Assembly: GCA_001772615.1 (NCBI GenBank)
Contig: MEUZ01000001.1
Span: forward strand, 189,483 to 253,482
Length of the DNA: 64,000 nt
Source of the DNA: a candidate division WWE3 bacterium RIFCSPHIGHO2_01_FULL_40_23
Lineage (GTDB): Bacteria; Patescibacteriota; WWE3; UBA101185; 2-01-FULL-41-18
Direction of reading: 5' to 3'
The notes beneath the pieces were generated by a model. It worked only from the letters and a program-made list of their open reading frames with translations. It had not been told where the DNA came from and did no database searches. Of the stretch, positions 8,944 to 47,761 are shown piece after piece; position 1 is the first letter of the stretch, and every line of letters begins with the position of its first letter. The position numbers and the translations under genes were made by a program.

Positions 8944-9001
8944 AAAACTATTGTAGCAGAATGAACTTTCCGGAGCCTATTTCAAAAACACCTGGATCTT
9001 A

Positions 9002-9064
9002 TTGTCATTCCTGCGAAAGCAGGAATCTGGAATTATAGGTCCCGCATCAAGAGCGGGATGACAA
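9002..9064. repeat. Structured palindromic element, copy A (GTCATTCCTGCGAAAGCAGGAATC type)
   Basis: TGTCA closing stem with TGACA around two hairpins: ATTCCTGCGAAAGCAGGAAT and TCCCGCATCAAGAGCGGGA. Intergenic, msrB/rmuC. Confidence 0.7.
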
Positions 9065-9074
9065 TAAGCAAGTG

Positions 9075-10061
9075 TCATTCTAAAAGCTTGTCTTCTTTTT
9101 CTTCAAACTTGAGAGAATCTATTTTTCCAAGGAAAGAAGAATAGCGGCTTAACACCCCATCCATAGAACCTCTCGCTCTGTTTAAATGCCCGTCAAGAAC
9201 CGTGAGCTCTCCTCCAAATTTTTCTGTTTCCTTCTTTAAAGTTCCCAGAGCCCCCCATATCTTCCTCGCGTTTTCGGCAAGCTCTTTCTGCTGAAGGCCC
9301 ATTAAAATAACCTGGAGATAATAATAAAAAGTGTTGGGCGATACAAAAAATATCTTTCTATCCCTCGCATAGTTTTCAAGTTCGGGGTTGTTAACAGCCG
9401 TTTCATAATAAACTGATTCCGAGGGGATATACATTAACGCATAGTCTATCGTCCCCTCCGAAGGAAGGATATATTTTTTGGAAATATCATCAACGTGCTT
9501 TTTAACATCCCTTACAAAGACTTTTTTAACGGAACTTCTCTCCTCCTCCGTTTCCGAAGAAATCATCTGCCTGAAATTTTCCATAGGAAATTTTGAATCA
9601 ATGGGAATTAGACCTTTATCGGTTTTTACAACTGCATCAACTTTATCCCCACCTCTAAACATGTACTGCATTTCATAGGAGCTTTTAGGAAGTATTTGTG
9701 AAAGAAGGTCCTCTAAAATCTGCTCCCCAACGTTGCCTCTTGATTTAGGCGATAATAAGGCGTCCTGCAAATCCCTCATACCTTTTGAAAACTCGCTTAC
9801 TTTCCCAAGCTCTTTTTGAACATCCCCCACAACCCTTGCGGCATTGTCAAGCCTATCACCAAGCATTTTATTCTGCTCCATTAAAGTTCTTCTTTGCTCC
9901 GACAGCTCAAGCTCCAAAGTCCCCTTCATACTTTTAAGCCACTCCATAAGCACCTTCTCCGATTCACTTTCCCCTTTAAGCTTTTTAATTTCCCTTGCTA
10001 AAAAGATGAAAAGAAGAACAAAACCTAAAGCTAAAATTAAAATTGTTAAAGTATTATCCAT
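9075..10061 (-). CDS. rmuC: DNA recombination protein RmuC
   Basis: N-terminal TM, coiled coils, C-terminal nuclease-like region with the IPIDSKFP signature. Confidence 0.8.
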   Translation of the reverse strand: MDNTLTILILALGFVLLFIFLAREIKKLKGESESEKVLMEWLKSMKGTLELELSEQRRTLMEQNKMLGDRLDNAARVVGDVQKELGKVSEFSKGMRDLQDALLSPKSRGNVGEQILEDLLSQILPKSSYEMQYMFRGGDKVDAVVKTDKGLIPIDSKFPMENFRQMISSETEEERSSVKKVFVRDVKKHVDDISKKYILPSEGTIDYALMYIPSESVYYETAVNNPELENYARDRKIFFVSPNTFYYYLQVILMGLQQKELAENARKIWGALGTLKKETEKFGGELTVLDGHLNRARGSMDGVLSRYSSFLGKIDSLKFEEKEDKLLE

Positions 10062-10128
10062 AAAGATAGCTAATAAAAGCAGTTCTAAAGGTTATGAAAT
10101 AAAAAGATTCCGTGTATCATTTTAGCAT

Positions 10129-10488
10129 ATGCCAAAATTCCTCTTTACGATTATAGCGGCCGTACTGGCCTCTCTTACCGCCCTTATTTATATGCTCATA
10201 TACAAATCTCCCGAGGAGACTGTAAACGTGGCTGTCTTTCTTTCGGTTTTATGGATTTTTATTACCCTTGCTCTTTCTCTTCTAATCTACGCCGTTAAGT
10301 ATAAAAGGGCTTCAAAGCACACAAACCTAAGAACCCTTTATAGAAGCGCGGCCAGGCCTTCGGTTTTTACGGCGACATTAGCCACGGGCTTTCTTGTAAT
10401 AAAGGTCCTGGGCGCTCTAACAATTATAAATGCAATTTTATTTGTAGTCTTTATTTTTTCAATCTATAAGCTTACATCAAAACCTTGA
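10129..10488 (+). CDS. Hypothetical membrane protein (119 aa)
   Basis: Three predicted TM helices; no motif. Confidence 0.45.
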   Translation: MPKFLFTIIAAVLASLTALIYMLIYKSPEETVNVAVFLSVLWIFITLALSLLIYAVKYKRASKHTNLRTLYRSAARPSVFTATLATGFLVIKVLGALTIINAILFVVFIFSIYKLTSKP

Positions 10489-10554
10489 CACTAAAAGGCT
10501 GTAGTGGTGTACTTAAAGCGTAGTTTCTATTTGTAATTATTTCATGGAGAACTT

Positions 10555-11046: not shown

Positions 11047-11052
11047 TACAAC

Positions 11053-11098
11053 GTCATGTCATCCCGGGCTTGACCCGGGGTGACCCCTCGGGGTCACC
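11053..11098. repeat. Structured palindromic element, copy B (GTCATCCCGGGCTTGACCCGGG type)
   Basis: Hairpins CCCGGGCTTGACCCGGG and GTGACCCCTCGGGGTCAC between convergent genes; overlaps the uppS stop. Confidence 0.7.
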
Positions 11099-14451: not shown

Positions 14452-14518
14452 AGTCATTGCGAGGGTGCAGCCCGAAACAATCTACAACGGGATTGCCTCG
14501 CTACGCTCGCAATGACAC
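14452..14518. repeat. Structured palindromic element, copy C (GTCATTGCGAGG…CTCGCAATGAC)
   Basis: 11-bp outer inverted repeat enclosing CCCGAAACAATCTACAACGGG; overlaps the start codon of the next gene. Confidence 0.6.
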
Positions 14519-21098: not shown

Positions 21099-21716
21099 GT
21101 GGATAAAAAAATAAAAGCTGTTTTGCTTACGATAACACTTTTAATTTATGTTTCATTTACCGTTAAGGTAATTAATATATTTCTTGCCGACTACTATCAC
21201 ATTAAAGGTAAAAAGCTTTTGTATAGGGGATACCTCTCGGAGGCAAATGACAATATTAATAAAGCCATAAAACTAAATTATGAAGAGCCGTCCTATCATA
21301 GGACTAATGCTGCTTTGTTTCTTGCTGCGCTCTCTTTAAAGGAAGGAGACATGCAAAAAATAAAACAATATGCCCTGTCGGAAATGGAAACCGCTTATAA
21401 TCTTCAGAAAATAAACCTTGTCAATCTTAAACACCTGCTCTCTCTTTATTATTACTTAAGTGTTGATGACGCTGTAGATCCGAGGGAAATTGATGATCGA
21501 TTAAAGACAAAAACAATGACCTTTTTTGAAGAGGTAAAGGACATTTCGCCAAATGACTCAAGCGTTTACCTTACGATCGGAAAATATTACGGACTGCTTA
21601 AGGAATATGAGTTGGCGGAAGAAGCTCTTGAGAAAGCCTTGAAGCTTAAGCCTGATCTAAAGGAGGCAAAAGATGAGCTTGATGCAGTCAGAGTTAAAAC
21701 AGGTTTTAAGGCCTGA
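21099..21716 (+). CDS. TPR-repeat protein with N-terminal TM anchor
   Basis: TM helix, then TPR-like repeats (…YYGLLKEYELAEEALEKALKLKPD…). Confidence 0.6.
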   Translation: MDKKIKAVLLTITLLIYVSFTVKVINIFLADYYHIKGKKLLYRGYLSEANDNINKAIKLNYEEPSYHRTNAALFLAALSLKEGDMQKIKQYALSEMETAYNLQKINLVNLKHLLSLYYYLSVDDAVDPREIDDRLKTKTMTFFEEVKDISPNDSSVYLTIGKYYGLLKEYELAEEALEKALKLKPDLKEAKDELDAVRVKTGFKA

Positions 21717-22839
21717 CCTCAACCACATAAGAAGAGGATACCCAACCTTCTTTACCGTCTCCAAAAAGCACTTTAAGCCATTCCGTTCTTTCCTCAAGGA
21801 CAGACACCTCATCACCGCTGTTTATTCTCCCTATTTCGCTCGCGGTCAAACTCGGCTCTGATCTCACCCTTAACCAGCCTGTACCTGTGGATAGGACCTT
21901 CACTTTCTTACCTATAAGGTCAATACCAGTAAACCTTTCAAGTGCAGTTTTAGCCTCATTGGTCAATCCACTATCGGATTTCCTTCCAAGGTAAGCTATT
22001 GTATCACCGGCTTTCAAGGCAAATTTATCATTTCCCGTAACGGGACTGCCGTCCGCTCCATAAATATTCCCAAGGTAGTCAATAAAATATGAGAATTTAA
22101 GAGCTGTGTTTCTTGTTTTATTCCAGTAAACAATCCCGTTTACCCAAAGAGGAACATCCAGGGTTAACTCATTAAGATCGGAAGAAAGATCATAAACAAC
22201 TTTAGACCCCGGGATGACAGCCGACTTATCAGGGACCGGAATTAGAAAGAGCTGAACCGAAACATTAAGTTTGTAGTTCTTCTTTATTTTAACTCTTGCC
22301 GTTTGAGGCTCAAAACCCGCTTTTTCCACGCGAAGGTCATACTCCCCATCGGAAAGAACTGATGACGAATATGGTGTCTTTCCAACCTCGGCGTCGTCAA
22401 TAAAAACGGTTGCCTGCGATGGTTCCGAAACAAGGCTTATTTTTGAACTTAAATCTTTATAATCAATCCAAAAATTCTGCCCTGAAGAAAAGCTTCTTGA
22501 AATGCCAAGATCCCTATTAATAACGACTTGGGGAACTTCTCTTGAGTTTGTCGTAAAGGGAATCGTCGCTTCATATGAATTTAAAGGCCCTTTAACCTTT
22601 ACCAAGTGTGAGCCGGGTTTTACTTCCCACGACTGGTAAGGAGTATTGCCAAGCTTACTATCATCAAAATAAACTTCTGCATCCCCGTAAGAAACACTAA
22701 CCGAAAGGCCCGATTGCCCCCAAAAAGCGCTTCTATGTCTATAAACTTTATAAAGCAGGAATGCCGAAGTTAAAATGCCCGCAGTAATAAGTAAAATAAA
22801 AAGGGCTTTTTTACCTTTTTCGTTCGTATCCGTCAACAT
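21706..22839 (-). CDS. Membrane-anchored protein with two PEGA domains and a C-terminal SH3b domain
   Basis: PEGA-like EVYFDDSKLGNTPY and VFIDDAEVGKTPY…EKAGFEP; SH3b GWLRVRSEPS…GWVSSSYV. Start at MLTDTNEKGKK (22839) so that it does not overlap the tRNA. Confidence 0.65.
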   Translation of the reverse strand: MLTDTNEKGKKALFILLITAGILTSAFLLYKVYRHRSAFWGQSGLSVSVSYGDAEVYFDDSKLGNTPYQSWEVKPGSHLVKVKGPLNSYEATIPFTTNSREVPQVVINRDLGISRSFSSGQNFWIDYKDLSSKISLVSEPSQATVFIDDAEVGKTPYSSSVLSDGEYDLRVEKAGFEPQTARVKIKKNYKLNVSVQLFLIPVPDKSAVIPGSKVVYDLSSDLNELTLDVPLWVNGIVYWNKTRNTALKFSYFIDYLGNIYGADGSPVTGNDKFALKAGDTIAYLGRKSDSGLTNEAKTALERFTGIDLIGKKVKVLSTGTGWLRVRSEPSLTASEIGRINSGDEVSVLEERTEWLKVLFGDGKEGWVSSSYVVEVRP

Positions 22840-22862
22840 TGGTTGTATAATATACCAGTCAG

Positions 22863-22936
22863 GGCCTGATCGCCAAGTGGTAAGGCAGGAGTCTGCAAAA
22901 CTCTTATCGGCGGTTCGATTCCGCCTCAGGCCTCCA
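22863..22936 (+). tRNA. tRNA-Cys (GCA)
   Basis: Acceptor stem GGCCTGA/TCAGGCC, discriminator T and encoded CCA; anticodon loop CTGCAAA; T-arm GCGGTTCGATTCCGC. Confidence 0.85.
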
Positions 22937-22956
22937 GGATCTGTACAAAGTTTATT
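22915..22956 (+). repeat. Direct repeat copy 1: 22-nt 3' end of tRNA-Cys plus 20 nt downstream (att-like)
   Basis: TCGATTCCGCCTCAGGCCTCCAGGATCTGTACAAAGTTTATT, identical to 23097-23138. Confidence 0.9.
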
Positions 22957-23096
22957 GGATAGAACACAAAAGCAAAAAGTCACGATAAACGGAATCGAAC
23001 TGCCGGACTGAGGAACGAAGTGACGAGGGAGGCGGGCTCGCGGGATTTAGAAGCTGTTATGAGCAAAGCGAATTACAGATTCTTAATACACGTGAG

Positions 23097-25617: not shown

Positions 25618-26244
25618 CTACATAAAAGACTGGAGGATCATTTTGTAAAACTTCTTCTGGTTTAGGTAGTGATCAACAATAATAAATTCAATTCCCGCGT
25701 TTGTGGCAAACTGGTAATCGGTCTGGGAATCCCCGAAATAAATGCAGTCCTCTTTTTTGGACCCGCTTTTGTTAATTATCATGTCAAGGCAGAAAGGGTC
25801 GGGCTTTTCATGGCCTTCATCAGTGCAGGAAACAACATAGTTCAGGTATTGCGACAGGCCATTGTTTTCCATTATCTTGTTTAAAGATCCGTACTGCCTG
25901 TTGGTGCAGACGGATACTATCCTCCCCTCTTTATTGAGCGTTTTAATAATATCCGAAACTGCGTCAAATATTTCAATTTTATCTATGTTTTTTATGTGCA
26001 AGTCTTCGTTTTCCTTAACGAGAACGTGGGGGTTAAGCTTTAAACCGAAATGCAAAATCGCTTCATCAAACTGAAGATGCATTGCTGTTCCTCTTGATTT
26101 GAAATGAAGGTCTCTTAAGTATAGGTCCACTTCATAATGCTTGATGTCAATATATTTATCAAAGGTGTCAACAAACATCTGCTGGTTGAATTCGTATGAA
26201 TTTGTGATGGTGTCGTCAACATCAAAAATAAAATGTTTTTTCAC
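25618..26244 (-). CDS. HAD-superfamily hydrolase
   Basis: Motif I FDVDDTIT, motif II VCTN, and motif III K…YFGDSQTD. Confidence 0.8.
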   Translation of the reverse strand: MKKHFIFDVDDTITNSYEFNQQMFVDTFDKYIDIKHYEVDLYLRDLHFKSRGTAMHLQFDEAILHFGLKLNPHVLVKENEDLHIKNIDKIEIFDAVSDIIKTLNKEGRIVSVCTNRQYGSLNKIMENNGLSQYLNYVVSCTDEGHEKPDPFCLDMIINKSGSKKEDCIYFGDSQTDYQFATNAGIEFIIVDHYLNQKKFYKMILQSFM

Positions 26245-26292
26245 GGGTGTAATTATACGTCTTTTTAATAGGGTTGTCGTTTGTTATTAGTT

Positions 26293-26362
26293 TGTCATCC
26301 CGGCGAAAGCAGGGATCCTGAATCAAGTTCAGGATGACAAGGGCCCAAGCCCGGGATGACAA
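26293..26362. repeat. Structured palindromic element, copy D
   Basis: TGTCATCCCGGCGAAAGCAGGGATCCTGAATCAAGTTCAGGATGACAAGGGCCCAAGCCCGGGATGACAA. Confidence 0.7.
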
Positions 26363-26455
26363 AAGGTCCGCGACACAACGGACTAAGTCTAAACAAAAAG
26401 GAGGTGGACTGCAGTCAATACACCTCCTTAAAAATCCTTTGTCAACTTATGGGGT

Positions 26456-27742
26456 TTACCAGCTTCCAGAATCAGATCCGCCGGTATCCCAACTACCGCT
26501 ATCGCTACCGCCTCCCGTATCCCATGATCCAGAGTCACTGCCTGAGTCCCAACCGCCATCGGAATCGGAACCCCAGCTACCCGAATCCGTACCTCCGCTG
26601 TCCCAGCTCCCACCAGAGTCGGAGTCATCATCAGACGAATCAAACAATGATGTGCTTGAGGACGACGAGGGCTCCGGAGTGCTCGTCGGCTCGGGTGTAT
26701 TAGTCGGAAGTGGCGTGGGTGTAGGCGTTGCGGCAAGATCAGTAGCGTCTTCAGCTTTCTTAATCGCCGAGTCCGCATAAGCCATCGACGCAATGAAATC
26801 CTCGCCGTAGCAGGCTTGCCGTGCCTTCGCAACCTCCCCCTTGGCCTCCGCCAATTTGTTCTTGGCATTAACTTTATTATAGGAACTTGCGGCCACGTAA
26901 GTTATCGTGTCTGTAATTTCCTTGTCCGCCGAGATAATCTGGGTGTACGCAGTAACCACATTGGCACTGTCCACATCAGCGCGAATCCTAGCAGTAGCAA
27001 TGAGCTCCTCTGCCTTTTTGCCCTCATCGTACACCGCTGGCTTATCAATGATTCCCTCTACGGGAGTTTGAAAAGCGCGGAAGGCTACTGCGAGCTGAAC
27101 CTGTCCATTCTGTAGGGTAAAATAGGAGGCGCTGAATGTTTGAACCTTTCGATTCGGTTCATCGCATAGCACCTTCCTTGGAAGCTCATCAATGTATTGC
27201 CGCGTGGAGGTGATGGAATCACCAACCTTCACAAGATAACCGCTGTCAATATCCATTGCCTTGCGGTCAAGCTCAAGAAGGTAAGCTCTCGCATTACCCT
27301 CGGCGAGCTCGTTTACCACGACAGTCGGCTGCAAGGCCTCGTTCAGACTTTTTAGGTCCGCGTAAGCTCCATCCCAGTTTTTTGATTCCTGATCTTCGTC
27401 AAGGGCAAGTAGAAGATCGGAAATCCTTCCCTTCGGAGCCAATAACTCATCGGCGTTTGACAACTGCCGCGAGTAATCAGCCGTGTAGTAGGAAGGGAAC
27501 TTGGGAGGCTTGTGTGCGTCAAGAACCTGATGCGCCTCCGGAAGATTCTCCGTCAGCTCCTGAACCTGAAAGCGGATGCCATCCTCCCGCCTTTGAACAT
27601 CCATCGCCTTGGCGGGGGATAAAATTGAGGGGCCAAACATGATGGCCGCGCCGGCAAACATCATCAGGATTCCCGAAACCACCCACCGCCACCAATTCTC
27701 AAAATCAAAGTACCTATCGAGTATTTTCGACAGTTCGTCCAC
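26456..27742 (-). CDS. Membrane-anchored protein with C-terminal (D/S/G)-S-G-S-W repeat tail (hypothetical)
   Basis: TM near the N-terminus, about 300-aa helical domain, TPTPTP linker, then seven WD/WG-spaced DSGSW repeats at the C-terminus. GC-rich. Confidence 0.55.
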   Translation of the reverse strand: MDELSKILDRYFDFENWWRWVVSGILMMFAGAAIMFGPSILSPAKAMDVQRREDGIRFQVQELTENLPEAHQVLDAHKPPKFPSYYTADYSRQLSNADELLAPKGRISDLLLALDEDQESKNWDGAYADLKSLNEALQPTVVVNELAEGNARAYLLELDRKAMDIDSGYLVKVGDSITSTRQYIDELPRKVLCDEPNRKVQTFSASYFTLQNGQVQLAVAFRAFQTPVEGIIDKPAVYDEGKKAEELIATARIRADVDSANVVTAYTQIISADKEITDTITYVAASSYNKVNAKNKLAEAKGEVAKARQACYGEDFIASMAYADSAIKKAEDATDLAATPTPTPLPTNTPEPTSTPEPSSSSSTSLFDSSDDDSDSGGSWDSGGTDSGSWGSDSDGGWDSGSDSGSWDTGGGSDSGSWDTGGSDSGSW

Positions 27743-27816
27743 TTTGTCCTCTCCTTTTTACGACAGATTAATTTTTGCTTTCGCAAACCGCCGGATTTAA
27801 CAACTCACAACCACCT

Positions 27817-27887
27817 TTGTCATCCCGGGTTTGACCCGGGATCCCGTTGGAGTTGCTGTAGAGATCCCTGCATCCGCAGGGATGACA
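27817..27887. repeat. Structured palindromic element, copy E
   Basis: TGTCA + ATCCCGGGTTTGACCCGGGAT + TCCCTGCATCCGCAGGGA + TGACA. Confidence 0.75.
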
Positions 27888-27964
27888 GGGGGTCGTGTTA
27901 AACTCGCCGGTTTACACACGAGAAAGTAAAACAAAACTTCCTCGTGTGAATGGTGGGCAGACCT

Positions 27965-28846
27965 TTAGAACGGAATCCCGCACTGCGTACAGGTTGTTGC
28001 GTTCGGAGCTTTCTGAACGCCGCAAGCAGGACAACGCGTTTTTGCTTCTTCAATCTGCTCTTGAAGCTTTGCCTGCCTCTGCTGACGTGCTTCCTCACCC
28101 TGCTTTTCCCAGTAAGCATCTTCATCAGGTTTCGCGGCTTTGTCCAAAGCACCCCACACCTGAAGCTTCAGGGTGAATACACTGAATTTACTTCCGATTC
28201 CTTGGGCAAGGTTGGAGGCAGTTGAGCCCATAAGGTCTGTGAGTGTGGACAGAATGTTCGAAGCGCCGCCAAACCGCCTGGCAATACTTGCTGCAGTACC
28301 GGCAATGTCCAACGCCGCAGTTGCGGCACCCTCAAGTTTGAGATTCCCAACGGAAACCGTGGTTGTCCCGTCACGATTTTCTGTAACGGAAACCTCAAGA
28401 ACTGGGACCCATCGCCCGCCAAGAAGCTGCTGAACGGTATAAGCCCCACCCGCAAATGAGCGGGCCACACGCGTATCATCATCTTCCAAAGCCACCAAGG
28501 CACGCTCAATTACATCAGCCCGGCAGTAGTAATTGTGTGGGTCAGGGTGGTACACAATTGCCGCGCCAACTCCCGCCCCGATTCCAACCACCCCGAGGAG
28601 GGTTCCCAACTCCCCGCTGACGCCGGCTCCGGAAGAAGTGGCTGAGGGCATAGAAGCAAATCTCTGTGAAAGAACCTTAAGCTCCGTTGCTTCCGCCTGT
28701 CTCTTTGGCTGCTTTGCCAATAGACCTTTGAGGATCTTCACCAAGCCATCCTGCGAAAGTTCCGCCCAAGCGTCCTTCATAGGACCCTCTTCAATCCCAT
28801 CCCAAATTGCCTTAAGATCGGAAGGTAGGGCATTAATATCCGCCAT
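27965..28846 (-). CDS. Hypothetical protein with C-terminal zinc ribbon
   Basis: 293 aa; Gly/Ala-rich centre, coiled coil, and CPACG…CTQCG at the C-terminus. GC-rich. Confidence 0.5.
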   Translation of the reverse strand: MADINALPSDLKAIWDGIEEGPMKDAWAELSQDGLVKILKGLLAKQPKRQAEATELKVLSQRFASMPSATSSGAGVSGELGTLLGVVGIGAGVGAAIVYHPDPHNYYCRADVIERALVALEDDDTRVARSFAGGAYTVQQLLGGRWVPVLEVSVTENRDGTTTVSVGNLKLEGAATAALDIAGTAASIARRFGGASNILSTLTDLMGSTASNLAQGIGSKFSVFTLKLQVWGALDKAAKPDEDAYWEKQGEEARQQRQAKLQEQIEEAKTRCPACGVQKAPNATTCTQCGIPF

Positions 28847-28967
28847 TCTCTCATCTCCTTATCTTTTCCTTATTGGTTTTGTAAAGTGTGAGTATTATAG
28901 GTTTTATGAATGCGGGTGTCAAAAACGAACCATGTTTTAAGATTCACTAACACTTTTGCGGGTACTG

Positions 28968-29064
28968 TCTGTCATCCCGGGCTTGACCCGGGATCTTATC
29001 GCGGGATTGTCATAGAGATCCCGGATCATGTGCCCGCCTTCGGCAGGCAGGTCCGGGATGACAA
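28968..29064. repeat. Structured palindromic element, copy F (double unit)
   Basis: CTGTCATCCCGGGCTTGACCCGGGATC… plus GATCCCGGATC… plus GTCCGGGATGACAA, between divergent genes. Confidence 0.75.
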
Positions 29065-29136
29065 TTGGAATAAACCTGAATAAAGATATAAAATATCCGA
29101 TAGCAAAACTATTACAAAGAAAAGAGGAAAGAGACC

Positions 29137-29922
29137 ATGAAAAAGCTTATTGTAGCTATGGTAGCGTTTCCGTTGGTGGTACTGCTCTACGCGTGTGTAT
29201 CCCGCAACCCCCAGCTCACGGAAACACCAGCCGCAGTCGGAACCGCTACACGGGTGGCACTATCAACCGCGTCAGCGGAGGTTTCTCTGACTCCGAGTCC
29301 CGAAGTAAGTGAAGCCGTCTTTATCAAAGGCGGGGTGGCTACACTTGGCCGTACGGAAAAAGAGGTTGAGGAAGACTATCAAGACTGCCTTGCTATGGCG
29401 GGCAGGACAAATCAAGCAGCTTCAATCTGTGAACCAAAGGATAGTGTCTTTGGCGACCGGCCGCTTCGTACCATGTGGAAAGTGGAAGCTTTTCGCCTTG
29501 ATATTTATGAAGCCCACGATTCCAATGGCTACCCGCTCATCGTGCACTACGACGAAGCGGTTAAGGCCTGCCAGGAAAAAGGCGGAAGACTCCCCACCGA
29601 GGAACAGTGGGAATTTGCCGCGCGCGGCGAGGAGGGAAGAATGTGGCCATGGGGAAACAGCCCGCCCACAGCCGACAAGGCAAACATTGACACGGTTGGC
29701 GGCTACTCCGACAATCGCGTTCAAAAAGTGGGACAATACGAAGCGGGCAAAACGCCCGAAGGGGTCCACGACATGGTCGGAAACGTATGGGAATGGGTCG
29801 AAGGCGGCATGCGAAAAGGCGGGAGCGCGGGAAGCTATGTGGTTTTCACAAAGCCTTCCCATATGACCAGCGATAGCCAGGCTGGTTTCCGTTGCGCCTA
29901 TGATGCGCCCCCTAACTCATGA
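29137..29922 (+). CDS. Lipoprotein with formylglycine-generating-enzyme (FGE/SUMF1)-type domain
   Basis: Lipobox LLYAC; HDMVGNVWEWV…GGS…GFRCA signature. Confidence 0.75.
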   Translation: MKKLIVAMVAFPLVVLLYACVSRNPQLTETPAAVGTATRVALSTASAEVSLTPSPEVSEAVFIKGGVATLGRTEKEVEEDYQDCLAMAGRTNQAASICEPKDSVFGDRPLRTMWKVEAFRLDIYEAHDSNGYPLIVHYDEAVKACQEKGGRLPTEEQWEFAARGEEGRMWPWGNSPPTADKANIDTVGGYSDNRVQKVGQYEAGKTPEGVHDMVGNVWEWVEGGMRKGGSAGSYVVFTKPSHMTSDSQAGFRCAYDAPPNS

Positions 29923-29927
29923 GATTA

Positions 29928-29954
29928 GATTCCTGCTTCCGCGGGAATGACAAG
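29928..29954. repeat. Partial palindromic element, copy G (ATTCCTGCTTCCGCGGGAATGACAAG)
   Basis: Half-element immediately 3' of the FGE gene. Confidence 0.5.
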
Positions 29955-29955
29955 T

Positions 29956-29996
29956 TTTTTTTCAGAGCGGAAAGAACACAAACTTTCCGCTTTTTT
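29956..29996 (+). terminator. Rho-independent terminator
   Basis: AGCGGAAAG…CTTTCCGCT followed by TTTTTT. Confidence 0.65.
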
Positions 29997-30091
29997 ATTC
30001 AAAAACAAAACCGAATTTCAAATAAAAAACCCTCCGAACACGAGGTCACAACTTCTGTGACATCTGATTCAGAGGGTGTCAAACTTAAAGT

Positions 30092-31669
30092 CTAGGGGTC
30101 ACACTCCCCGATTGCCTTACCCCATTCACGGGTTGTCACGTCAAAGGTAGTCCTGTAATCCCCTTCAGTAGTAACGACCTCTAGCACTGTGCCGCTAAAA
30201 CCGGTAAGTTTCAACGTGCACTCCATTGTGCTTATGGGGTAACCCTTCGGAACCTCCGCTCCCTTTTCCAAAATCAAGGTAGCCTGGCCGTTAGCTGTCG
30301 CCCCTGCGAACACAACAACGGATTGGCCGTCGGTAGTATCCACACCAGTCCACCGTGTCGTTAGCCGGTAGCCTGGGTACGGTCCTCCAGTCACTTCCAT
30401 AATCCTGCCGGCCACCGAAGGAGTCAGTCCGGGGATAGTCGGCTGAACCGGTTGAGTGAGGTACTCAATTGCCTTCTCCGGCGGTAACGGCTGTGGGGCG
30501 TCGCACCCACTCAAAAGTGCAAACGTCACCAAAGAGGTCAAAACCAAATTCCTCATCATCTCACACTCCTCTACTTGCGAGCTCACACTTGGATAAGTGT
30601 AGGTTCGCGTGATATCGGTTGACCAACGAATTGTCAACTGTTCTAAGGGAGGTTTAACAATCTCATCCCTTAGCTGACGCCACCCTTCTTCCGGGCTATT
30701 GTCGGCCCCTTCGCAACCCGGCGGTTGGGGTCCTCCCGGAGGGCACCTCTGCTTTTGGGTCATAACCCCAACGAAGCGGATGGTTTCCCCATACTGCTCA
30801 CGCACAAAGTTGGCAACATCGGCCCACTGCCTAGCGTTGTATCCATTTATGTTGTAAATCTCCGGAACCGGACGGGCGTATGGGATATGCGGATTCCCTT
30901 TACCGATACGGCAGCACTTATATGCCACCTCGTCATAGTTCCATCCGTTCTCGCATACGTCACTGTCTACATTGCACACGGCGTTGCCAAAATCAAGCAA
31001 ACAACCTTTGTCGGGGTCCCCGGGAACACAGGTTGTTGCTTTAATGTACTCCTCTTCCCAACGCTCGGTGGTGTAAGGGTCGTTCCACGTGAGCTCCATA
31101 TCACTCGCACCGACGATGGTAACCTGACTGCTGTAGTTGGCCGCTCCCTGGACTATGGAATTAACCATTAAAGCCCAGGCCTTGCCATGTCCCACAGCAA
31201 GAGCCAAGTCCATTGAGGAGTTATTCACCCCAACGCCGATCGTCAATTGGGACAGCTTATCCCTTGACGAATAGATCCAGAAATTTCTGGCCATTTGTCT
31301 TACAGCTTCTCTAATGTCAGATTCCTTAAAGAAACCGTCAACAAAAATAGGCCAGGCTCCCCAGATACTGCCCGATTTTCCCGGATAACCAAGATCCAAA
31401 ACCACAAGCCAGTCCTGGGCCCTGGGCGTGTTGTACGCCGCAATGCCCAAAGCCCGGCCGACATCCGGAAGAAACCTTAAGTCATCAACATAATAGGACT
31501 TGGTCCATCCCGGATACGGGGGCAGCGGGTAATTTTTCAGGATCAGCGGCAGGTAAACCTTCCGGTGGTTTAGGGCGTCACTCTTCTCCTCCTCTGCGCT
31601 TATACCACTTACTCCGCTTGACGTTAGAAAGACCGCTAACGCAAGCAAGGCACAGAGGACGCGCTTCAT
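30092..31669 (-). CDS. Secreted protein ORF (525 aa) containing an internal second lipoprotein signal peptide (possible fusion of two genes)
   Basis: N-terminal signal peptide MKRVLCALLALAVFLTSSGVSG. At residue 371, MMRNLVLTSLVTFALLSGC (lipobox) is preceded by GAGGAG; an internal start would be at 30559. There is no stop codon between the two halves. Confidence 0.55.
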   Translation of the reverse strand: MKRVLCALLALAVFLTSSGVSGISAEEEKSDALNHRKVYLPLILKNYPLPPYPGWTKSYYVDDLRFLPDVGRALGIAAYNTPRAQDWLVVLDLGYPGKSGSIWGAWPIFVDGFFKESDIREAVRQMARNFWIYSSRDKLSQLTIGVGVNNSSMDLALAVGHGKAWALMVNSIVQGAANYSSQVTIVGASDMELTWNDPYTTERWEEEYIKATTCVPGDPDKGCLLDFGNAVCNVDSDVCENGWNYDEVAYKCCRIGKGNPHIPYARPVPEIYNINGYNARQWADVANFVREQYGETIRFVGVMTQKQRCPPGGPQPPGCEGADNSPEEGWRQLRDEIVKPPLEQLTIRWSTDITRTYTYPSVSSQVEECEMMRNLVLTSLVTFALLSGCDAPQPLPPEKAIEYLTQPVQPTIPGLTPSVAGRIMEVTGGPYPGYRLTTRWTGVDTTDGQSVVVFAGATANGQATLILEKGAEVPKGYPISTMECTLKLTGFSGTVLEVVTTEGDYRTTFDVTTREWGKAIGECDP

Positions 31670-31886
31670 TGTAGTCTCCTTAAAGGCTAAAAGTACCCGT
31701 TAAATCTCTTGCTAAAAAACCGATTGTGTATTAGGCGTCAGCCTTCCTTTCTAATTGTGAATAATTTGAAAGTTGTCTTAATTATACTTCTACACAAACC
31801 GGCCCATAAAATCAACAGTTTTTAACCTAGACCGTTATTAGCCCCCATGGTATGATTTAAAACAGTAATTGATTTAAGGAGAATTT

Positions 31887-32099
31887 ATGATGACAGAAGG
31901 TGGCCAAAACAACGAAGGTGGGGAAGGCTCGGCTTTGGCTTCTATAAACGAAGTTTTGGAGGCACTAGATCCTGAAAATAGAGAAAGTTTAAGAGGTGCA
32001 ATAGCAGAAGCATTAGCAGATGGGAAAACACCCGATGAGATAGTTAAGATACTGGAGGGGGGAGTGGAAGAAAATCCTCCCACAGCACAATCCACTTGA
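31887..32099 (+). CDS. Small acidic protein (70 aa)
   Basis: Strong RBS TAAGGAGAATTTATGATG; Glu/Gly/Ala-rich. Confidence 0.45.
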   Translation: MMTEGGQNNEGGEGSALASINEVLEALDPENRESLRGAIAEALADGKTPDEIVKILEGGVEENPPTAQST

Positions 32100-40837: not shown

Positions 40838-40839
40838 CA

Positions 40840-40914
40840 TTGTCATCCCGGGGCTTGACCCGGGATCTCTACAGAAGATCCGATGGGATCCCCGCTTTCG
40901 CGGGGATGACATCC
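40840..40914. repeat. Structured palindromic element, copy H
   Basis: TTGTCATCCCGGGGCTTGACCCGGGATC…GGATCCCCGCTTTCGCGGGGATGACATCC. Confidence 0.75.
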
Positions 40915-42738: not shown

Positions 42739-42777
42739 TGTTGTCATTCCCGCGCCTGCCCGCCTCTGGCGGGAATC
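42739..42777. repeat. Partial palindromic element, copy I (TGTCATTCCCGCGCCTGCCCGCCTCTGGCGGGAATC)
   Basis: Between the valS stop and the downstream gene. Confidence 0.55.
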
Positions 42778-42783
42778 TCGTTA

Positions 42784-44937
42784 CTAATCTTGTCTATCCG
42801 GCCAGAGGGAAACAATTAGTGGAGTCTTTTCATTCACAAACACCTTTTCCCAAATCTCTTCTGTGACAAAAGGGATAAAGGGATGAAGAAGTTTAATACA
42901 ATCCTTATAAACTTCTAGAAGAACGGGAATAAAAACTTCATAATCTTTTCTGTCTTTAACACTCTCAATGTATTTATCCGCAAATTCATGCCACACAAAT
43001 TGATAAACAGCCTCCAAAGAATCGGATAACCTGAATTTTTTCAAAGATTTAGAAGCGTCGTTTACAAGACGAATCTTCTTCTTAAGAATCTCCTGATCTT
43101 CTTTCTTTAGTGCCTTCGGATCAGCGCGCTCGTTCAGAATTGCCTCGTCACCAAATTCCTCAACTTTGCCAAGAATAAATCTGCCTATATTCCAAAGCTT
43201 GTTCGCGAAATTCCTTGCCGCAATGAATTTAGGCTCCTGCAAGGACTGGTCGCTTCCCGCGGGATTTCCCATAACAAGACCCATTCTCACACCATCTGCC
43301 CCGTACTTATCCAAAAGATCCATCGGGTCTACAACGTTATTCTTGGATTTACTCATCTTCTGGCCCTTGGGGTCACGAACCAGACCATGAAGGTAAACGA
43401 TTTCAAAAGGAATTTTTCCTGTTACGTAAACGCCAAGCATTATCATTCTCGCAACCCAGAAGAAGATTATTTCGTAGGCGGTTTCCATTACAGACGTAGG
43501 GTAAAAATATTTGTAATCCGGATGGTTGGGGTAACCCAAGGTTGAAAAAGGCCACTGGCCGGAGGAGAACCACGTGTCAAATGTATCAGAATCCTGCACT
43601 AAATTACTTGACCCACACTTGCACTTAACAGGAGCTTCGCCATCTGTTACCACCCACGAACCGCAATCCTTGCATTCCCAAGCGGGTATCCTCATACCCC
43701 AAACAATTTGTCTTGATATATTCCAATCTTTAATGTTAGTAAGCCATCTAAGAATTACCTTTTCAAACCTTTTAGGCACTATCTTTATTTCACCGTTTTT
43801 TACTTTCTCCACCGCAACTTTAGATAAAGATTTTTTGGTGTCGTTCATCCTGATGTACCATTGTGGCAAAGGCAAAGGCTCCAAAATTGTCCCGCATTTA
43901 TAACACAAAGAAACAGCATGTTTATATGGCTCTTCTTTCTTAAAAAGTCCCTTCTCTTTAAGGTAAGAAAGTACTTTTTCCCGCGCCGGAAGTACTTTTA
44001 ATCCCTCAAACTGCCCCGCTTCCTTGGTAAGCTTTCCGTCAAAACCGATTACCTGAATTAATGGCAGTTTATGTTTTTTACAAACATCAAAGTCATTCTC
44101 ATCATGAGCTGAAGTAAGTTTTACAACCCCTGTGCCAAAATCCATTTTTACAAACCCATCCGCCACAATTGGGAGAGAGCTTCCATTTACGGGGTTAGTA
44201 GCAATCTTCCCTATATACTTTTTATACCTCTTATCTTTAGGATGAACGGCTACACCTATATCTCCGGGTATTGTCTCGGGCCTTGCAGTTGCAATAATAA
44301 GACTCTCTTCTCCCTTTACGGGAAACTCTATGTAATACAAGAACCCATCTCTTTCCTCATGCTCCACCTCAAGATCCGAAAACCCCGTTCCGTGCTTGGT
44401 GCAGTAATTTACTAATCTCGCATCCCTGTACAAAAGCCCATCATCATAAAGTCTTTTAAAAGTTTTGTAGGTGGTTTTTACAATGTCAGGATCAAGAGTG
44501 AATTTTTCACGGCTGAAGTCAAGGGAGTAGCCAAGCCTCTTTAACTGATTCTCCATAGTGGATTTATTTTTCTGCACAAAGTCCCAGATGTTTTGATACA
44601 AAGTCTCGCGGTCATAATCAAACCTGCTTTTGCCTTCCTTTGATAACTCTTTTTCATAAACCACTTGCGTTTCAAAACCTGCATGATCAGCGCCAGGGAG
44701 CCAAAGGGTAGGGTCCCCGAGCATCCTATGCCATCTTATTAAGGTGTCCTCAACGGTGTACATGGCATGCCCTAAATGCAGCGGCGCGTTGGCGTTTGGA
44801 GGGGGGAGAATAATAGTGAAGGGCTTTTTCTTAGTATTGATTTTAGGAGCAAAGTAGCCCCCCTTCTCCCACATTTTATAGATCCTATCTTCAACATCCT
44901 TGGGGTTATAAGTTTTCTCCATTTTGGCTTCTTTCAT
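42784..44937 (-). CDS. valS: Valine--tRNA ligase (short form lacking the C-terminal coiled coil)
   Basis: PPPNANAPLHLGHA (HIGH motif), DWNISRQIVWGMRIP, and KMSKS. 717 aa. Confidence 0.9.
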   Translation of the reverse strand: MKEAKMEKTYNPKDVEDRIYKMWEKGGYFAPKINTKKKPFTIILPPPNANAPLHLGHAMYTVEDTLIRWHRMLGDPTLWLPGADHAGFETQVVYEKELSKEGKSRFDYDRETLYQNIWDFVQKNKSTMENQLKRLGYSLDFSREKFTLDPDIVKTTYKTFKRLYDDGLLYRDARLVNYCTKHGTGFSDLEVEHEERDGFLYYIEFPVKGEESLIIATARPETIPGDIGVAVHPKDKRYKKYIGKIATNPVNGSSLPIVADGFVKMDFGTGVVKLTSAHDENDFDVCKKHKLPLIQVIGFDGKLTKEAGQFEGLKVLPAREKVLSYLKEKGLFKKEEPYKHAVSLCYKCGTILEPLPLPQWYIRMNDTKKSLSKVAVEKVKNGEIKIVPKRFEKVILRWLTNIKDWNISRQIVWGMRIPAWECKDCGSWVVTDGEAPVKCKCGSSNLVQDSDTFDTWFSSGQWPFSTLGYPNHPDYKYFYPTSVMETAYEIIFFWVARMIMLGVYVTGKIPFEIVYLHGLVRDPKGQKMSKSKNNVVDPMDLLDKYGADGVRMGLVMGNPAGSDQSLQEPKFIAARNFANKLWNIGRFILGKVEEFGDEAILNERADPKALKKEDQEILKKKIRLVNDASKSLKKFRLSDSLEAVYQFVWHEFADKYIESVKDRKDYEVFIPVLLEVYKDCIKLLHPFIPFVTEEIWEKVFVNEKTPLIVSLWPDRQD

Positions 44938-44940
44938 AAA

Positions 44941-45192
44941 CTACTCCACAATTTCTCCATCAATTATATTATCGCCCTTGTCATCCCGTGCTTGACCCAG
45001 GATCTCTGTTTTTATCCTTTCTTCTTTGGCATGCGACAAAAATCTAATTAAAAGCGCTAGAAGCAGGGCGGCTATGTCATCCCCATAACCCAAAATAGGG
45101 ACAAAATCCGGTATAAAATCAAGAGGAAACAAAACATAAAGTATCGCAAGAATTAGCATCCAATTGTCTTTTATAAATCTTTTCAGGTTCAT
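44941..45192 (-). CDS. DUF1232 (YkvA-like) small membrane protein; C-terminal tail encoded by a palindromic element
   Basis: DFIPDFVPILGYGDD signature. The C-terminal …EILGQARDDK is the translation of element copy J. Confidence 0.55.
   Translation of the reverse strand: MNLKRFIKDNWMLILAILYVLFPLDFIPDFVPILGYGDDIAALLLALLIRFLSHAKEERIKTEILGQARDDKGDNIIDGEIVE
44977..45008. repeat. Degenerate palindromic element, copy J, inside a CDS
   Basis: CTTGTCATCCCGTGCTTGACCCAGGATCTCTG. Confidence 0.5.
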
Positions 45193-45199
45193 AACTTTG

Positions 45200-45476
45200 C
45201 CTTAAAAAAACCGTTCTTTAAACACAAAACTCTCTTGCGATTAAAGAACGGCCTTTTAAGTCCGCGCTCATGAAGCAGAGCAAAGCTCACTCCATGGCCA
45301 TGAAGTCAAGTGAAGCTTGTACTTCACGGTACCATCTTTATTCCCCCGAAGTAGAGTAAACTCACTTCAGGACTTAATTTACAGCTATTACGGGCATTCC
45401 CGAAGGGTTCTAATTTCATTAAGATTTCTTCTCTTAGCTTCATCCGGCGACATTACTTCGGACTCAACCGCTTTTT
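45200..45476 (+). ncRNA. rnpB: Candidate RNase P RNA (rnpB), reduced bacterial type; boundaries approximate
   Basis: About 330-bp gap with no ORF. P3-like hairpin CCGTTCTTTAA…TTAAAGAACGG directly followed by AAGTCCGCGCTCATGAAGCAGAGCAAAG (compare E. coli AAGUCCGGGCUCCAUAGGGCAG…AGAGCAAA). Internal GTAAACTCAC (compare GGUAAACUCCACC). 3' element ACATTACTTCGGACTC can pair with AAGTCCG (P4). Confidence 0.55.
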
Positions 45477-45519
45477 AAACTATAAACCATAATACCAAAT
45501 ATACTGATAAAATAAAAAC

Positions 45520-45975
45520 ATGAATCCAGCTGTGGCACTTATTTTTCTTGGCCTATACGCTTTTACCGTCGGGGTTATAGGAGGGATTATAATAACAACC
45601 CTGGTTAAAACCTTCGGGTACTATATATCTTTAAAAAAAGCCATATTAATAATGTCCCTTTATTATTTTTTATGCCTGATTTTTCGTGTAATCTTTGTTA
45701 CCTACGTCAATTTTACAGGACCGGGCTACCCGATACCCCCCGAAGACGCGGCGGTATACCCGCTCTTATTTTTTATCCTCCCGATAACATCGATACTTGA
45801 AGTTGTACTAATAACAACAATACTTAACCTGAGTAAAGAAAGAATTCCTGTAATCAAGGGTCTGGTTATAGGACTGGTCACAGCCTTGACTCTGGCCGTC
45901 ATAAATTACGGCGGTTTTATCTTACTCTTCTTTAAAATATTTTTTGGGGAAACGGACGGGGGAAGAGGGGGATAA
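45520..45975 (+). CDS. Hypothetical membrane protein (151 aa)
   Basis: Four TM segments. Confidence 0.45.
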   Translation: MNPAVALIFLGLYAFTVGVIGGIIITTLVKTFGYYISLKKAILIMSLYYFLCLIFRVIFVTYVNFTGPGYPIPPEDAAVYPLLFFILPITSILEVVLITTILNLSKERIPVIKGLVIGLVTALTLAVINYGGFILLFFKIFFGETDGGRGG

Positions 45976-46121
45976 AACAAGAAACGGTCTGTGAACTAAC
46001 CTAGCTATTCAGAGATTTTAAATGAGGAGAGGACTTCTTTTACAAAAGCGACCTTATTATTGAGATCCTGTTCCGTAGTTAAGCTCCTAAAAGACCATAC
46101 ATTTTTACCAGCGTTATATCC

Positions 46122-46598
46122 TCACGTTATTTCAATATCCAAAGAAGAGTTATATAAGGGGCTGTCTTTATCTTCCACATTAACTCGATATACCTCTAAA
46201 GCTACCTGTTCTTTATTACCTAAAGCTGCCGTTTCCTTTTTCAGAAGCGTCCTTTCTCCCCCAAACCCAACGCCTTGCTCGGGCAATTTTTGGATTGACA
46301 ACTCCGGTGTTGGAAAGTCTATATTTTTATTCTCATATTTTTTTGCGATAAGCTGTACTCCATTTTCTAATTCTTTGGGAAAGACTGTGTCTGGATAGGT
46401 AACTTCAAAATTAAGCTTAGAGTGTTTGAACGTATTTCCGGAAGAACTCTCCGCATCTTCTGCTGTATTAGTAGATAAAGGCGGTTCGGCTGTCCTTGTT
46501 TTTAATACCAAAGAAGTGCCCAAAACGGATACAAGGGCTACAACAATTATTAAAAGGAGAACATTGCTGCTTCCGTTTGTCCTGAATTGGTTGTGCAT
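46122..46598 (-). CDS. Secreted hypothetical protein (158 aa)
   Basis: N-terminal TM or signal; no motif. Confidence 0.45.
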   Translation of the reverse strand: MHNQFRTNGSSNVLLLIIVVALVSVLGTSLVLKTRTAEPPLSTNTAEDAESSSGNTFKHSKLNFEVTYPDTVFPKELENGVQLIAKKYENKNIDFPTPELSIQKLPEQGVGFGGERTLLKKETAALGNKEQVALEVYRVNVEDKDSPLYNSSLDIEIT

Positions 46599-46624
46599 TA
46601 ATATAGCATATTACAAAATAATCA

Positions 46625-47761
46625 TTATTGTAAAGCTGCTGAACTCATAATCGTCAAAGACGGGTCGGCGATAACTTTTTCATAAGACACAGGTTTGAAA
46701 TTAAAGTGGGCGCAGGAGGCGATGTAAATTGCATTGTCGGTGCAAAGCTCAATTGGGGGAACAAACAATTTATGTGAAGTTTTTAAAAGCGCGTTTTTAA
46801 ATTTCTCCCTAAGATTAGTGTTAGCAGAAACACCGCCCGCAAGCATCACGGAGTTTACGTTATATTCTTTTGCGGCTTTAACGGTTTTTGCAACAAGGAC
46901 GTCCGTAATGGCTTCCTGGAATTCATAGGCGATTTCATAGGCATCACTATTAAATCCTGCACCCTGTTTGTCATTCCAGCGAAAGCCGGAATCTACGTTT
47001 TTAGATTCTGGCTGTCGCCAGAATGACGCTGCTGGACCAATCGCGGGATGGCGGTTTTTAACCTTGGCCATTACTGCTGTTTTAATGCCGGAAAACGAGA
47101 AATTAAAATCTTTGGATCCAATCATCGGCCTTTTAAAAGTAAAGCTTGTTTTAACTTCTCCTTTTTTAAGTGTCTCCTCCCAAACAAGGGCGGCTTTTGC
47201 TATGGCCGGGCCACCCATGTAAGGGGCAAGTCCCAAAAGCCTTGCAGACTTATCAAACGCTTCACCGCAGGCATCGTCCAGAGTGCCGCCAATGTATTTA
47301 AAATTCCCGTGACCTTTCATAAGTACAAGGTCGGTGTGCCCTCCACTCACTATCAGAACAACTGCAGGAAATTTTATTTCCGAAGGATCCTTATTAATAA
47401 AGTTACCGTATATGTGACCAACCAGATGGTTAACGGGTATAAGAGGCTTGCCCCAAGCAAGTGAAAGGGCTTTGGCAGTCTCCACCCCAACTATCAGGGA
47501 GCCAATTAAACCTGGTCCAACCGTAACAGCAATCGCAGATAGCCCTGCTGACTCAACGCCAGCTTTTAACAGACAGCCCTCAACCACGGGAATTATATAT
47601 TCAACTTGTTTTCTTGCTGCAACTTCGGGTATAACCCCTCCCGTTTTTAAATGAATGTCGGAGGAAGTCGCAAGAACGGAGGCTACAACTTCGCTGCCAT
47701 CCCTAACAACAGCTGCAGCGGTTTCATCGCATGAGGTCTCAATACCCAAAATCAAAGACAT
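46625..47761 (-). CDS. tsaD: tRNA N6-adenosine threonylcarbamoyltransferase TsaD, with about 28-aa in-frame insertion encoded by a palindromic element
   Basis: MSLILGIETSCDETAAAVV…VNHLVGHI…FSFSGIKTAV…GGVSAN…CTDNA. The insertion PAIGPAASFWRQPESKNVDSGFRWNDKQ lies between the SGxKTA and SFQEA regions and equals the element at 46968-47034. Confidence 0.85.
   Translation of the reverse strand: MSLILGIETSCDETAAAVVRDGSEVVASVLATSSDIHLKTGGVIPEVAARKQVEYIIPVVEGCLLKAGVESAGLSAIAVTVGPGLIGSLIVGVETAKALSLAWGKPLIPVNHLVGHIYGNFINKDPSEIKFPAVVLIVSGGHTDLVLMKGHGNFKYIGGTLDDACGEAFDKSARLLGLAPYMGGPAIAKAALVWEETLKKGEVKTSFTFKRPMIGSKDFNFSFSGIKTAVMAKVKNRHPAIGPAASFWRQPESKNVDSGFRWNDKQGAGFNSDAYEIAYEFQEAITDVLVAKTVKAAKEYNVNSVMLAGGVSANTNLREKFKNALLKTSHKLFVPPIELCTDNAIYIASCAHFNFKPVSYEKVIADPSLTIMSSAALQ
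46968..47034. repeat. Structured palindromic element, copy K (GTCATTCCAGCGAAAGCCGGAATC type), in-frame inside tsaD
   Basis: TTGTCATTCCAGCGAAAGCCGGAATCTACGTTTTTAGATTCTGGCTGTCGCCAGAATGACGCTG; the open frame is maintained. Confidence 0.75.

Follow-up and report, generated by a model that had tools for sequence, protein, structure and literature searches.

What are the short, GC-rich palindromes that recur along the chromosome of a WWE3 bacterium, mostly at gene ends and twice within genes? The DNA in question, referred to below as the window, is a stretch of 64,000 nucleotides (nt) of contig MEUZ01000001.1 of candidate division WWE3 bacterium RIFCSPHIGHO2_01_FULL_40_23. A sequence-only reading of it had picked out 11 copies, A to K, of a palindromic element between positions 8960 and 47060, and had likened them to the Rickettsia palindromic elements (RPE), with an echo of the dRS3 repeats of Neisseria. 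Inspection of each locus finds the element at all 11: each has one or more modules in which (T/C)GTCAT is followed by a GC-rich stem of 8-10 bp, a loop of 4-5 nt and a C; the tally is ~18 modules in the 64-kb window, against ~0-1 by chance. The explanation that best covers the observations as a whole, to which we would give a probability of about three in four, is that these are copies of the CGTC-tagged superfamily of repetitive extragenic palindromes (REPs), expanded in this WWE3 lineage and kept at sites where they do little harm, and that, by analogy, they would be substrates for nicking of the Ssn type.

The module and its kin

The unit is ~25-30 nt long and consists of an unpaired (T/C)GTC tag, a stem of 8-10 bp that starts with A-T, a loop of 4 nt (GAAA) or 5 nt (CTTGA) and a C directly 3' of the stem. 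Both core sequences that had been quoted for it are present, the 25-mer GTCATCCCGGGCTTGACCCGGGATC at four sites and GTCATTCCNGCGAAAGCNGGAATC at six (<=3 mismatches), with no site for either in 100 shuffles; the patterns GTCATYC-N12-GRATC and GTCATYC-N13-GRATC match exactly seven and four times, against expectations of 0.03 and 0.02. All 15 aligned modules have the GTC of the tag, preceded by T in 13 of them and by C in two. Stems, 8-10 bp long, read AT(T/C)CC...GG(A/G)AT; their outer five pairs are 97% paired and two of these pairs show compensatory C-G/U-A switches, changed on both sides. Loops of 4 nt are GAAA, GGAA, GGAT or GACA and those of 5 nt CTTGA or TTTGA, the exceptions being copy I, with a 15-nt loop, and the right arm of copy F (F_R), which carries a 27-nt insertion. 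The stem is followed by C in 13 of the 15 modules and the next base is C or T, giving a C-Y-N tail where the published consensus is CCA.

A covariance model (R1) was trained on 15 modules and applied, filters off, to the entire window. It retrieves its 14 training modules from the window as well as copy I (E 0.006), picks out a truncated remnant at 22202-22219 on the minus strand (E 0.078) and, weakly, copy C and the right arm of copy F, and finds nothing at 1-9000 or 47100-64000. Structure prediction on each copy, which had been proposed as a check, sets the dimers apart: as single strands they fold far better than their shuffles (z -4.1 to -7.2), and the single modules G, I and J fold at near the shuffled level (z -0.4 to -1.7), the hairpin of J being broken.

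This is the architecture of the CGTC-tagged REPs, which Di Nocera, De Gregorio & Rocco (2013; PMC3733652) divided into families CGTC-1 to -4 and defined by an unpaired CGTC or TGTC (also CCTC) tag, a stem of 8-9 bp with A-T as first and second pairs, a short CCA tail, and a loop of 4 nt in family 1 and 5 nt in families 2-4. The repeats surveyed there are mostly dimers, some with conserved spacers, and lie mostly <=20 bp from the 3' ends of open reading frames (ORFs); some dimers are intragenic and code for 20-30 residues, tRNA synthetase genes being among those hit. Tag, A-T stem, 4-5 nt loop, inverted dimers, placement at ORF 3' ends and intragenic dimers all recur in the window. What differs is the host, a member of the candidate phyla radiation (CPR), a group that is not among the five phyla of the survey, and the C-Y-N tail. 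By sequence, membership of the window elements in the family is well supported; on geometry alone, modules with a stem of 8 would fall into family 1 when the loop is 4 and into family 2 when it is 5.

The superfamily includes dRS3/NTS of Neisseria, the Ssn-related motifs (SRM) discussed below, and RPE-4 and RPE-6 of Rickettsia. Neisseria CGTC-1 is dRS3, and CGTC-1 and CGTC-4 of R. conorii are RPE-6 and RPE-4 (PMC3733652); the kinship of the window modules with RPE-4 and RPE-6 rests on that equivalence. Both comparisons made in the sequence-only reading accordingly point to the right superfamily, although the modules are not members of the long families of the RPE-1 type (100-150 bp), from which they differ in length, at 25-30 nt, and in their CPR host. 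RPEs as first reported are ~150 bp long and restricted to Rickettsia (PMC10969869). The elements of the window share with them the presence of palindromic repeats in frame in housekeeping genes, where surface peptides are added and the fold is retained; they differ in being 25-30 nt modules or 60-95 bp dimers. A scan of NCBIfam with nine element-derived peptides at E up to 10 gave no match, a weak test, as the peptides are short and the presence of RPE models in that library is unconfirmed, and the literature, searched by translated element peptides, yielded nothing relevant.

The Neisseria repeat has since been redefined as a 28-nt unit, NTS, and generalised to the SRM by Chenal et al. (2025; PMC11893778). 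SsnA, a GIY-YIG protein of 94 amino acids (aa), binds the NTS hairpin only as single-stranded DNA and cuts a few nt upstream of it; the three bases 5' of the palindrome are important for cutting, and the C that follows it for binding (PMC11893778). At these positions the module alignment has an invariant GTC and a nearly invariant post-stem C. The SRM pattern HGTCWYN(0-2)YYVSBRHN(0-5)WNVSBRGN(0-2)RNCYNB has four exact matches in the window against 0.14 expected, and the remaining modules miss it only in the 3' tail; the left module of copy A (A_L) departs from the 28-nt NTS consensus CGTCATTCCCGCGMAVGCGGGAATCYRG at three of its 28 positions, the one such match in the window, with none expected. 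A further likeness is that the repeats bracket single genes in a cluster, here the block at 26-30 kb. On the other side, the tag here is mostly TGTC, and neither tight tags-outward dimers nor intragenic copies are discussed in PMC11893778, where CPR go unmentioned.

Other small palindromic repeats are more remote. The QMITEs of Coxiella and the Correia elements of Neisseria (~200 bp) are likewise non-autonomous and able to overlap ORFs, and neither has any sequence relationship to the modules; QMITE1 (300-400 bp) and QMITE2 (150-190 bp, a GTAG REP) of Coxiella burnetii were rejected as candidates, the elements here being 25-95 bp long with a (T/C)GTC tag and a WWE3 host.

Gene ends, dimers and dispersal

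Tags-outward inverted dimers (TGTCAT...ATGACA) account for five of the copies in Table 1, namely A, E, F, H and K; D is made up of three modules, and B, G, I and J are single. Counting two loci beyond the window, seven of 13 are inverted dimers or trimers. Copy C has the tag and overall plan of the others with a different stem (R1 E = 0.38) and stands outside the main consensus.

Table 1. Copies of the tagged palindromic element in the window, with their form, their setting and, where available, their folding score (z) against shuffles
Feature	Position	Strand	Form	Setting	z
A	9003..9063		inverted dimer, tags outward; left 9003-9030(+) = TGTCATTCCTGCGAAAGCAGGAATCTGG; right 9033-9063(-); palindrome reaches 8998-9068	12 nt downstream of rmuC stop (9075), upstream of msrB	-6.8
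B	11057..11098	+	single module 11057-11085, degenerate 3' arm; second hairpin 11079-11098	between convergent RDD-family gene and uppS; uppS stop codon within second hairpin	
C	14453..14517		divergent inverted dimer GTCATTGCGAG...CTCGCAATGAC	between tatD and GT2-like gene	-5.6
Remnant	22202..22219	-	TGTCATCCCGGGG then TCTAAAG; first 13 nt identical to head of left module of H (H_L), hairpin deleted		
D	26293..26362		D1 26293-26320(+), D2 26311-26339(-), truncated D3 26341-26362(-)	between HAD hydrolase gene and 428-aa gene	-6.5
E	27818..27887		inverted dimer (27818-27846 +, 27860-27887 -)	intergenic, GC-rich block	
F	28970..29063		inverted dimer; F_L 28970-28998(+), exact 25-mer consensus; F_R 29017-29063(-), insertion in loop	between divergent genes	-5.4
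G	29925..29952	-	single module	3 nt past stop of FGE-sulfatase-like gene	
H	40841..40911		inverted dimer	4 nt past stop of 1017-aa epimerase/DUF4012 gene	
I	42742..42780	+	single, long loop: ATTCCCGC-N15-GCGGGAAT	ends 3-4 nt from stop of class I aminoacyl-tRNA ligase gene (42784..44937 -)	
J	44979..45007	+	single decayed module, broken hairpin	inside DUF1232 gene 44941..45192(-)	-0.4
K	46969..47028		intact inverted dimer (46969-46996 +, 47001-47028 -)	inside tsaD 46625..47761(-)	-7.2

A greedy ORF map makes 89% of 8960-47060 coding, and nine of the 11 loci fall in the remaining 11%, most of them starting or finishing a few nt from a stop codon. The earlier observation that copies gather at gene ends is borne out; the suggestion that went with it, that they could be terminators, is not. 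None of the modules is followed by a T-run, none figures in the lists of terminator-like sites of the window (the totals of which are at chance level), and separate terminators adjoin two of the copies, a terminator-like hairpin at 26383-26366(-) beside D and a canonical one at 29964-29993, 3' of G. Intrinsic termination is unsupported because T-tails are lacking and the lists contain no module.

A wider form of the same idea would make the elements functional RNAs, terminators or stabilisers of 3' ends, that are selected at gene ends and whose spread is incidental. Their position just downstream of ORFs and their stable hairpins speak for it, as does the argument that many REPs are transcribed and possibly act as RNA (PMC3733652). 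We nevertheless regard it as unlikely: to what has just been said of terminators must be added that the dimers hold modules in both orientations, that F lies between divergent genes, that two copies are intragenic and that no Rfam family overlaps the elements. The elements may still have a secondary effect on mRNA 3' ends or mRNA stability.

Four copies (D, E, F and G) do lie in a GC-rich block at 26-30 kb, as had been pointed out; GC is 0.50-0.52 over 26000-32000, against ~0.41. The block holds four genes, two of them, of 428 aa and 525 aa, without a Pfam match, one of 293 aa with a zinc ribbon, and the FGE-sulfatase-like gene, which has only four homologues near 50% identity. Three of these genes are bracketed by D, E, F and G, in a manner that resembles the gene-by-gene bracketing by NTS in Neisseria.

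The dimers themselves bear signs of having been copied whole. The spacer of copy E opens with ATCTCTACAG, a start that it shares with copy H and with a dimer beyond the window, in an overlapping segment of the same DNA (L125, 17470-17543); the 16-nt spacer of H, TCTCTACAGAAGATCC, is identical to that of the L125 dimer, and the stems of these two differ by compensating changes. It is these shared spacers and compensated stems that argue for the copying of entire dimers as units, and on the strength of the shared spacers the dimers can be taken as small non-autonomous elements, 60-95 bp long. Inverted ends, a conserved spacer and many copies, together with the perfect 11-nt terminal inverted repeat of copy A, are also what one would expect of a miniature inverted-repeat transposable element, in which TGTCAT...ATGACA would be the termini of an insertion sequence moved in trans by a DDE transposase. 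There is, however, no direct target-site duplication at any dimer and no transposase-like small ORF in the window, and the 2013 survey found no transposase associated with CGTC repeats (PMC3733652). When dimer H was searched against 72,556 plasmids, other genomes gave matches to single modules only, so that the unit conserved across genomes is the 25-nt module and the dimers are local. An origin of this kind is quite improbable.

That the elements form a dispersed family and not a local duplication is evident from both ends of the scale. The proteins TsaD, tRNA ligase and DUF1232 are identical in RIFCSPHIGHO2_01_FULL_40_23 and RIFCSPLOWO2_01_FULL_41_18 (Rifle aquifer), with protein records OGC50938.1 and OGC55913.1, and the same contig is found in several independent assemblies, from which it follows that the elements are not an assembly artefact. 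Two further loci lie in the 5 kb past the end of the window, in L125. At 16321-16346 of L125 there is a minimal double-headed form, CGTCATCCCCGCGAAAGCGGGAATGACA, in which one hairpin is tagged on both strands. Contigs of ~68-70 kb from independent assemblies stop ~220 nt past a hairpin dimer (L125 17452-17761), and repeats of this family may be one cause of breaks in assemblies. By comparison, three syntenic relatives (17 kb each), with the gene order of the window (dnaA, wzy, SBP, tsaD, tRNA ligase, L25, epimerase), contain no module at all, and the family has therefore expanded specifically in this WWE3 lineage.

At the other end of the scale, a search of genome contigs finds the exact 25-mer GTCATCCCGGGCTTGACCCGGGATC in at least 120 loci. 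Its hosts include Alpha-, Beta-, Gamma- and Deltaproteobacteria, Actinomycetota, Bacillota, Bacteroidota and Fibrobacterota, and further Cloacimonadota, Zixibacteria, Binatia and seven CPR lineages; across no fewer than 12 phyla a single 25-nt module is unchanged to the letter. Such identity points to strong constraint by a protein that recognises the module, to frequent horizontal transfer, or to both.

What the window adds to a type of repeat already described is a new host. The 2013 survey (PMC3733652) had recorded the family with its dimers, its bias towards ORF 3' ends and its occasional in-frame insertions, and a cognate nuclease followed in 2025 (PMC11893778). New here are the CPR host (Patescibacteria are absent from both papers, and the literature searched contains no earlier CPR report), the lineage-specific burst and the insertion into tsaD.

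Copies inside genes

Two copies lie in frame within genuine genes, as had been proposed: K in tsaD and J in a DUF1232 gene. Copy K encodes ASFWRQPESKNVDSGFRWNDK. An alignment of TsaD with its 18 nearest homologues, 56-72% identical, leaves the segment RHPAIGPAASFWRQPESKNVDSGFRWNDKQGAGF without a counterpart in any of them; compared with that of the relative P0006, the loop has 28 extra residues, and 21 of their codons are the dimer itself. The earlier estimate of ~28 added residues stands, and the peptide, which does not recur in the aligned TsaD proteins, is specific to the lineage. The TsaD hidden Markov model matches in two pieces, one on either side of the insert. An AlphaFold model based on the homologue alignment is confident overall (pLDDT 89.6, pTM 0.87), with pLDDT values under 50 for residues 249-260 and 263-269, in the stretch that separates helices 224-237 and 272-299. 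Low pLDDT between two confident helices suggests that the K insert is a disordered surface loop. Several other CPR homologues (P0007, P0009, P0027, P0065 and P0096) have insertions of their own, of 20-50 residues and unrelated in appearance, in various loops; that of P0096, for example, reads RIRQLAETTPESDLSRAKSRDSGQVLRPRAQDRGAQDRGARM.

Copy J makes a smaller contribution. Comparison with the DUF1232 orthologue of one of the syntenic relatives (L130) shows an in-frame insertion of ~7 residues, EILGQAR. Since the conserved tail GDNIIDGEIVE follows it, the insertion is internal, and the view that J supplies the C-terminal tail of the protein has to be dropped. The related peptide QARDDK in a spurious ORF at 26334 is, as had been said, nothing else than the translated element. 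A third and decayed case may be the remnant at 22202-22219, which reads AVIPGSKV in the linker of a protein with PEGA and SH3 domains (ORF 21706..22983), although this is uncertain. The 5' end of that mechanically called ORF, on the minus strand, is overlapped by a tRNA-Cys (GCA) gene at 22863-22936 (+), which implies that the true start of the PEGA + SH3 gene lies further downstream.

Might the intragenic copies be functional, selected peptide modules of TsaD and the DUF1232 protein instead of tolerated insertions? In favour of this, the essential gene tsaD holds K intact and in frame, and 20 contigs, drawn from several samples, encode the identical TsaD protein. But the K stretch is predicted to be disordered (pLDDT <50 within residues 249-269) and is absent from all 18 of the nearest homologues, J is decaying at the DNA level, and the peptide is simply the palindrome translated; we consider selection for the peptides very unlikely.

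In-frame insertion is a habit of the CGTC family, in agreement with the 2013 survey (PMC3733652), and is met well outside WWE3. A contig of Candidatus Gottesmanbacteria (L107, MFJJ01000017.1) has three in-frame dimers in two genes within 4 kb (361-431, 2985-3076 and 3618-3709). Two of them (VIPGLTRNPRLVGGQASSSNTGSRLGGRDDK) make nearly identical 31-residue insertions in a 641-aa membrane protein with GT87-like and NPCBM regions, and the third lies in a neighbouring long ORF. In Sphingopyxis indica a tags-outward dimer on pMC4 (NZ_CP076395.1; L131 2446-2528), a conjugative plasmid of 404 kb, is in frame in an ileS gene annotated by PGAP and reads RHPRESGDPERASANPTLDSRFRGNDK. The dimer in TsaD, an essential enzyme of t6A formation, adds a case to this list. 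For annotation, the modules explain spurious small ORFs and peptides such as VIPAKAGI, IPAFAGMT, VIPGLTRDP and GQARDDK.

The copies of the window persist almost only at low-harm sites, that is in the thin intergenic spacers that follow stop codons and, in rare cases, in frame where a protein (TsaD, DUF1232) has a surface loop or linker. Their coding effect would be a by-product: several reading frames of a GC-rich palindrome contain no stop codon, and selection would keep only those insertions that happen to be in frame.

A nuclease by analogy

How such copies might be made is suggested by SsnA of N. meningitidis. When DNA becomes single-stranded, in replication, repair or DNA uptake, each module would fold into its hairpin, to be bound, and nicked a few nt 5' of the tag, by a small single-domain nuclease of the GIY-YIG type whose gene would lie elsewhere in the genome. 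If cutting takes place 5' of the tag, a tags-outward dimer would have one cut site just outside each of its ends, on opposite strands. This geometry would suit a mobile unit and could underlie copying or recombination of dimers. That an Ssn nuclease acts in this WWE3 bacterium is put forward by analogy; an association of such a gene with the modules is seen in another genome, that of Kaistia terrae (L041), where a segment at 2275-2653 has modules on both flanks of a gene for a 95-aa single-domain GIY-YIG protein (PF01541, E 1.4e-14), with a tags-outward dimer 3 kb away from it; the tails of the Kaistia modules read CCA.

The same plan of tagged hairpins, inverted dimers and sites downstream of ORFs, together with a small gene, bracketed by the repeats, for a nuclease or transposase dedicated to them, is known from GTAG-type REPs and REPINs, which are moved by the HUH tyrosine transposase RAYT (IS200/IS605 family) and not by a GIY-YIG enzyme, but it is highly improbable that the window elements belong there, as their tag is (T/C)GTC and not GTAG, no Y1 transposase domain is found among the small ORFs of the window, and the 2013 survey found no dedicated transposase for CGTC repeats and never saw them flank RAYT genes (PMC3733652).

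Several findings weigh against the preferred reading, copies of the CGTC superfamily with nicking of the Ssn type. Only four of the ~18 modules fit the strict SRM pattern, and copy C does not fit it at all. The modules that flank the Kaistia GIY-YIG gene have their tags inward and the dimers have theirs outward, so that a dimer is not simply a copy of that unit from which the gene has been deleted. The 64-kb window contains no GIY-YIG gene by tblastn with the Kaistia protein (E up to 10), by Pfam search of 38 small ORFs or by motif scan, and Pfam finds no GIY-YIG domain among 55 small ORFs of seven 8-kb CPR loci and the 5 kb past the window end. Two lineage-specific ORFs between tsaD and the DUF1232 gene were considered as nucleases and rejected, their products being membrane or secreted proteins. 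In the literature covered, no mechanism of transposition has been demonstrated for these repeats; what is established for SsnA is limited to cleavage of single-stranded DNA and a reduction in transformation (PMC11893778). Finally, the insertions show neither a target-site duplication nor an empty site at nucleotide resolution, the available relatives being too diverged.

If the reading of the window elements as CGTC-family copies nicked by Ssn nucleases is extended, essential genes of bacteria in general, those of the streamlined CPR genomes included, would owe in-frame peptide insertions to dimers of the CGTC/SRM type, and bursts, those of the RPE-4 and RPE-6 type among them, would be driven by Ssn GIY-YIG nucleases. 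We offer this tentatively and think it doubtful as it stands. The examples that could be cited are TsaD and the DUF1232 protein in WWE3, the glycosyltransferase in Gottesmanbacteria and IleS in Sphingopyxis; were it true, part of the unusual insertions in CPR proteins could be accounted for, and the enzyme behind the mobilisation, which the 2013 survey lacked, would have a name. In an extreme version, in which this WWE3 genome has many copies and no ssn gene, the elements would have been acquired or would spread by DNA uptake and recombination with no resident nuclease. The WWE3 genome offers a compact test of the propagation of repeats by Ssn nucleases.

All the copies of the window lie on one side of a putative replication origin. 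At 50681-52400 dnaA, on the minus strand, adjoins rpmH, rnpA, yidC, a KH/R3H gene and dnaN, and the cumulative GC skew has its minimum at ~50-52 kb, on which grounds the origin is probably there. Directly past dnaN comes a cluster that resembles a conjugation or type IV secretion system (55400-63917; L125 4164-12604), a stretch without copies of the element; its genes code for a TraG/AAA_10 ATPase, a TraC-like protein, a protein with PrgI and CarboxypepD_reg domains and an M23 peptidase of 867 aa. Small ORFs resembling pilins of type IV secretion systems follow in the 5 kb past the end of the window.

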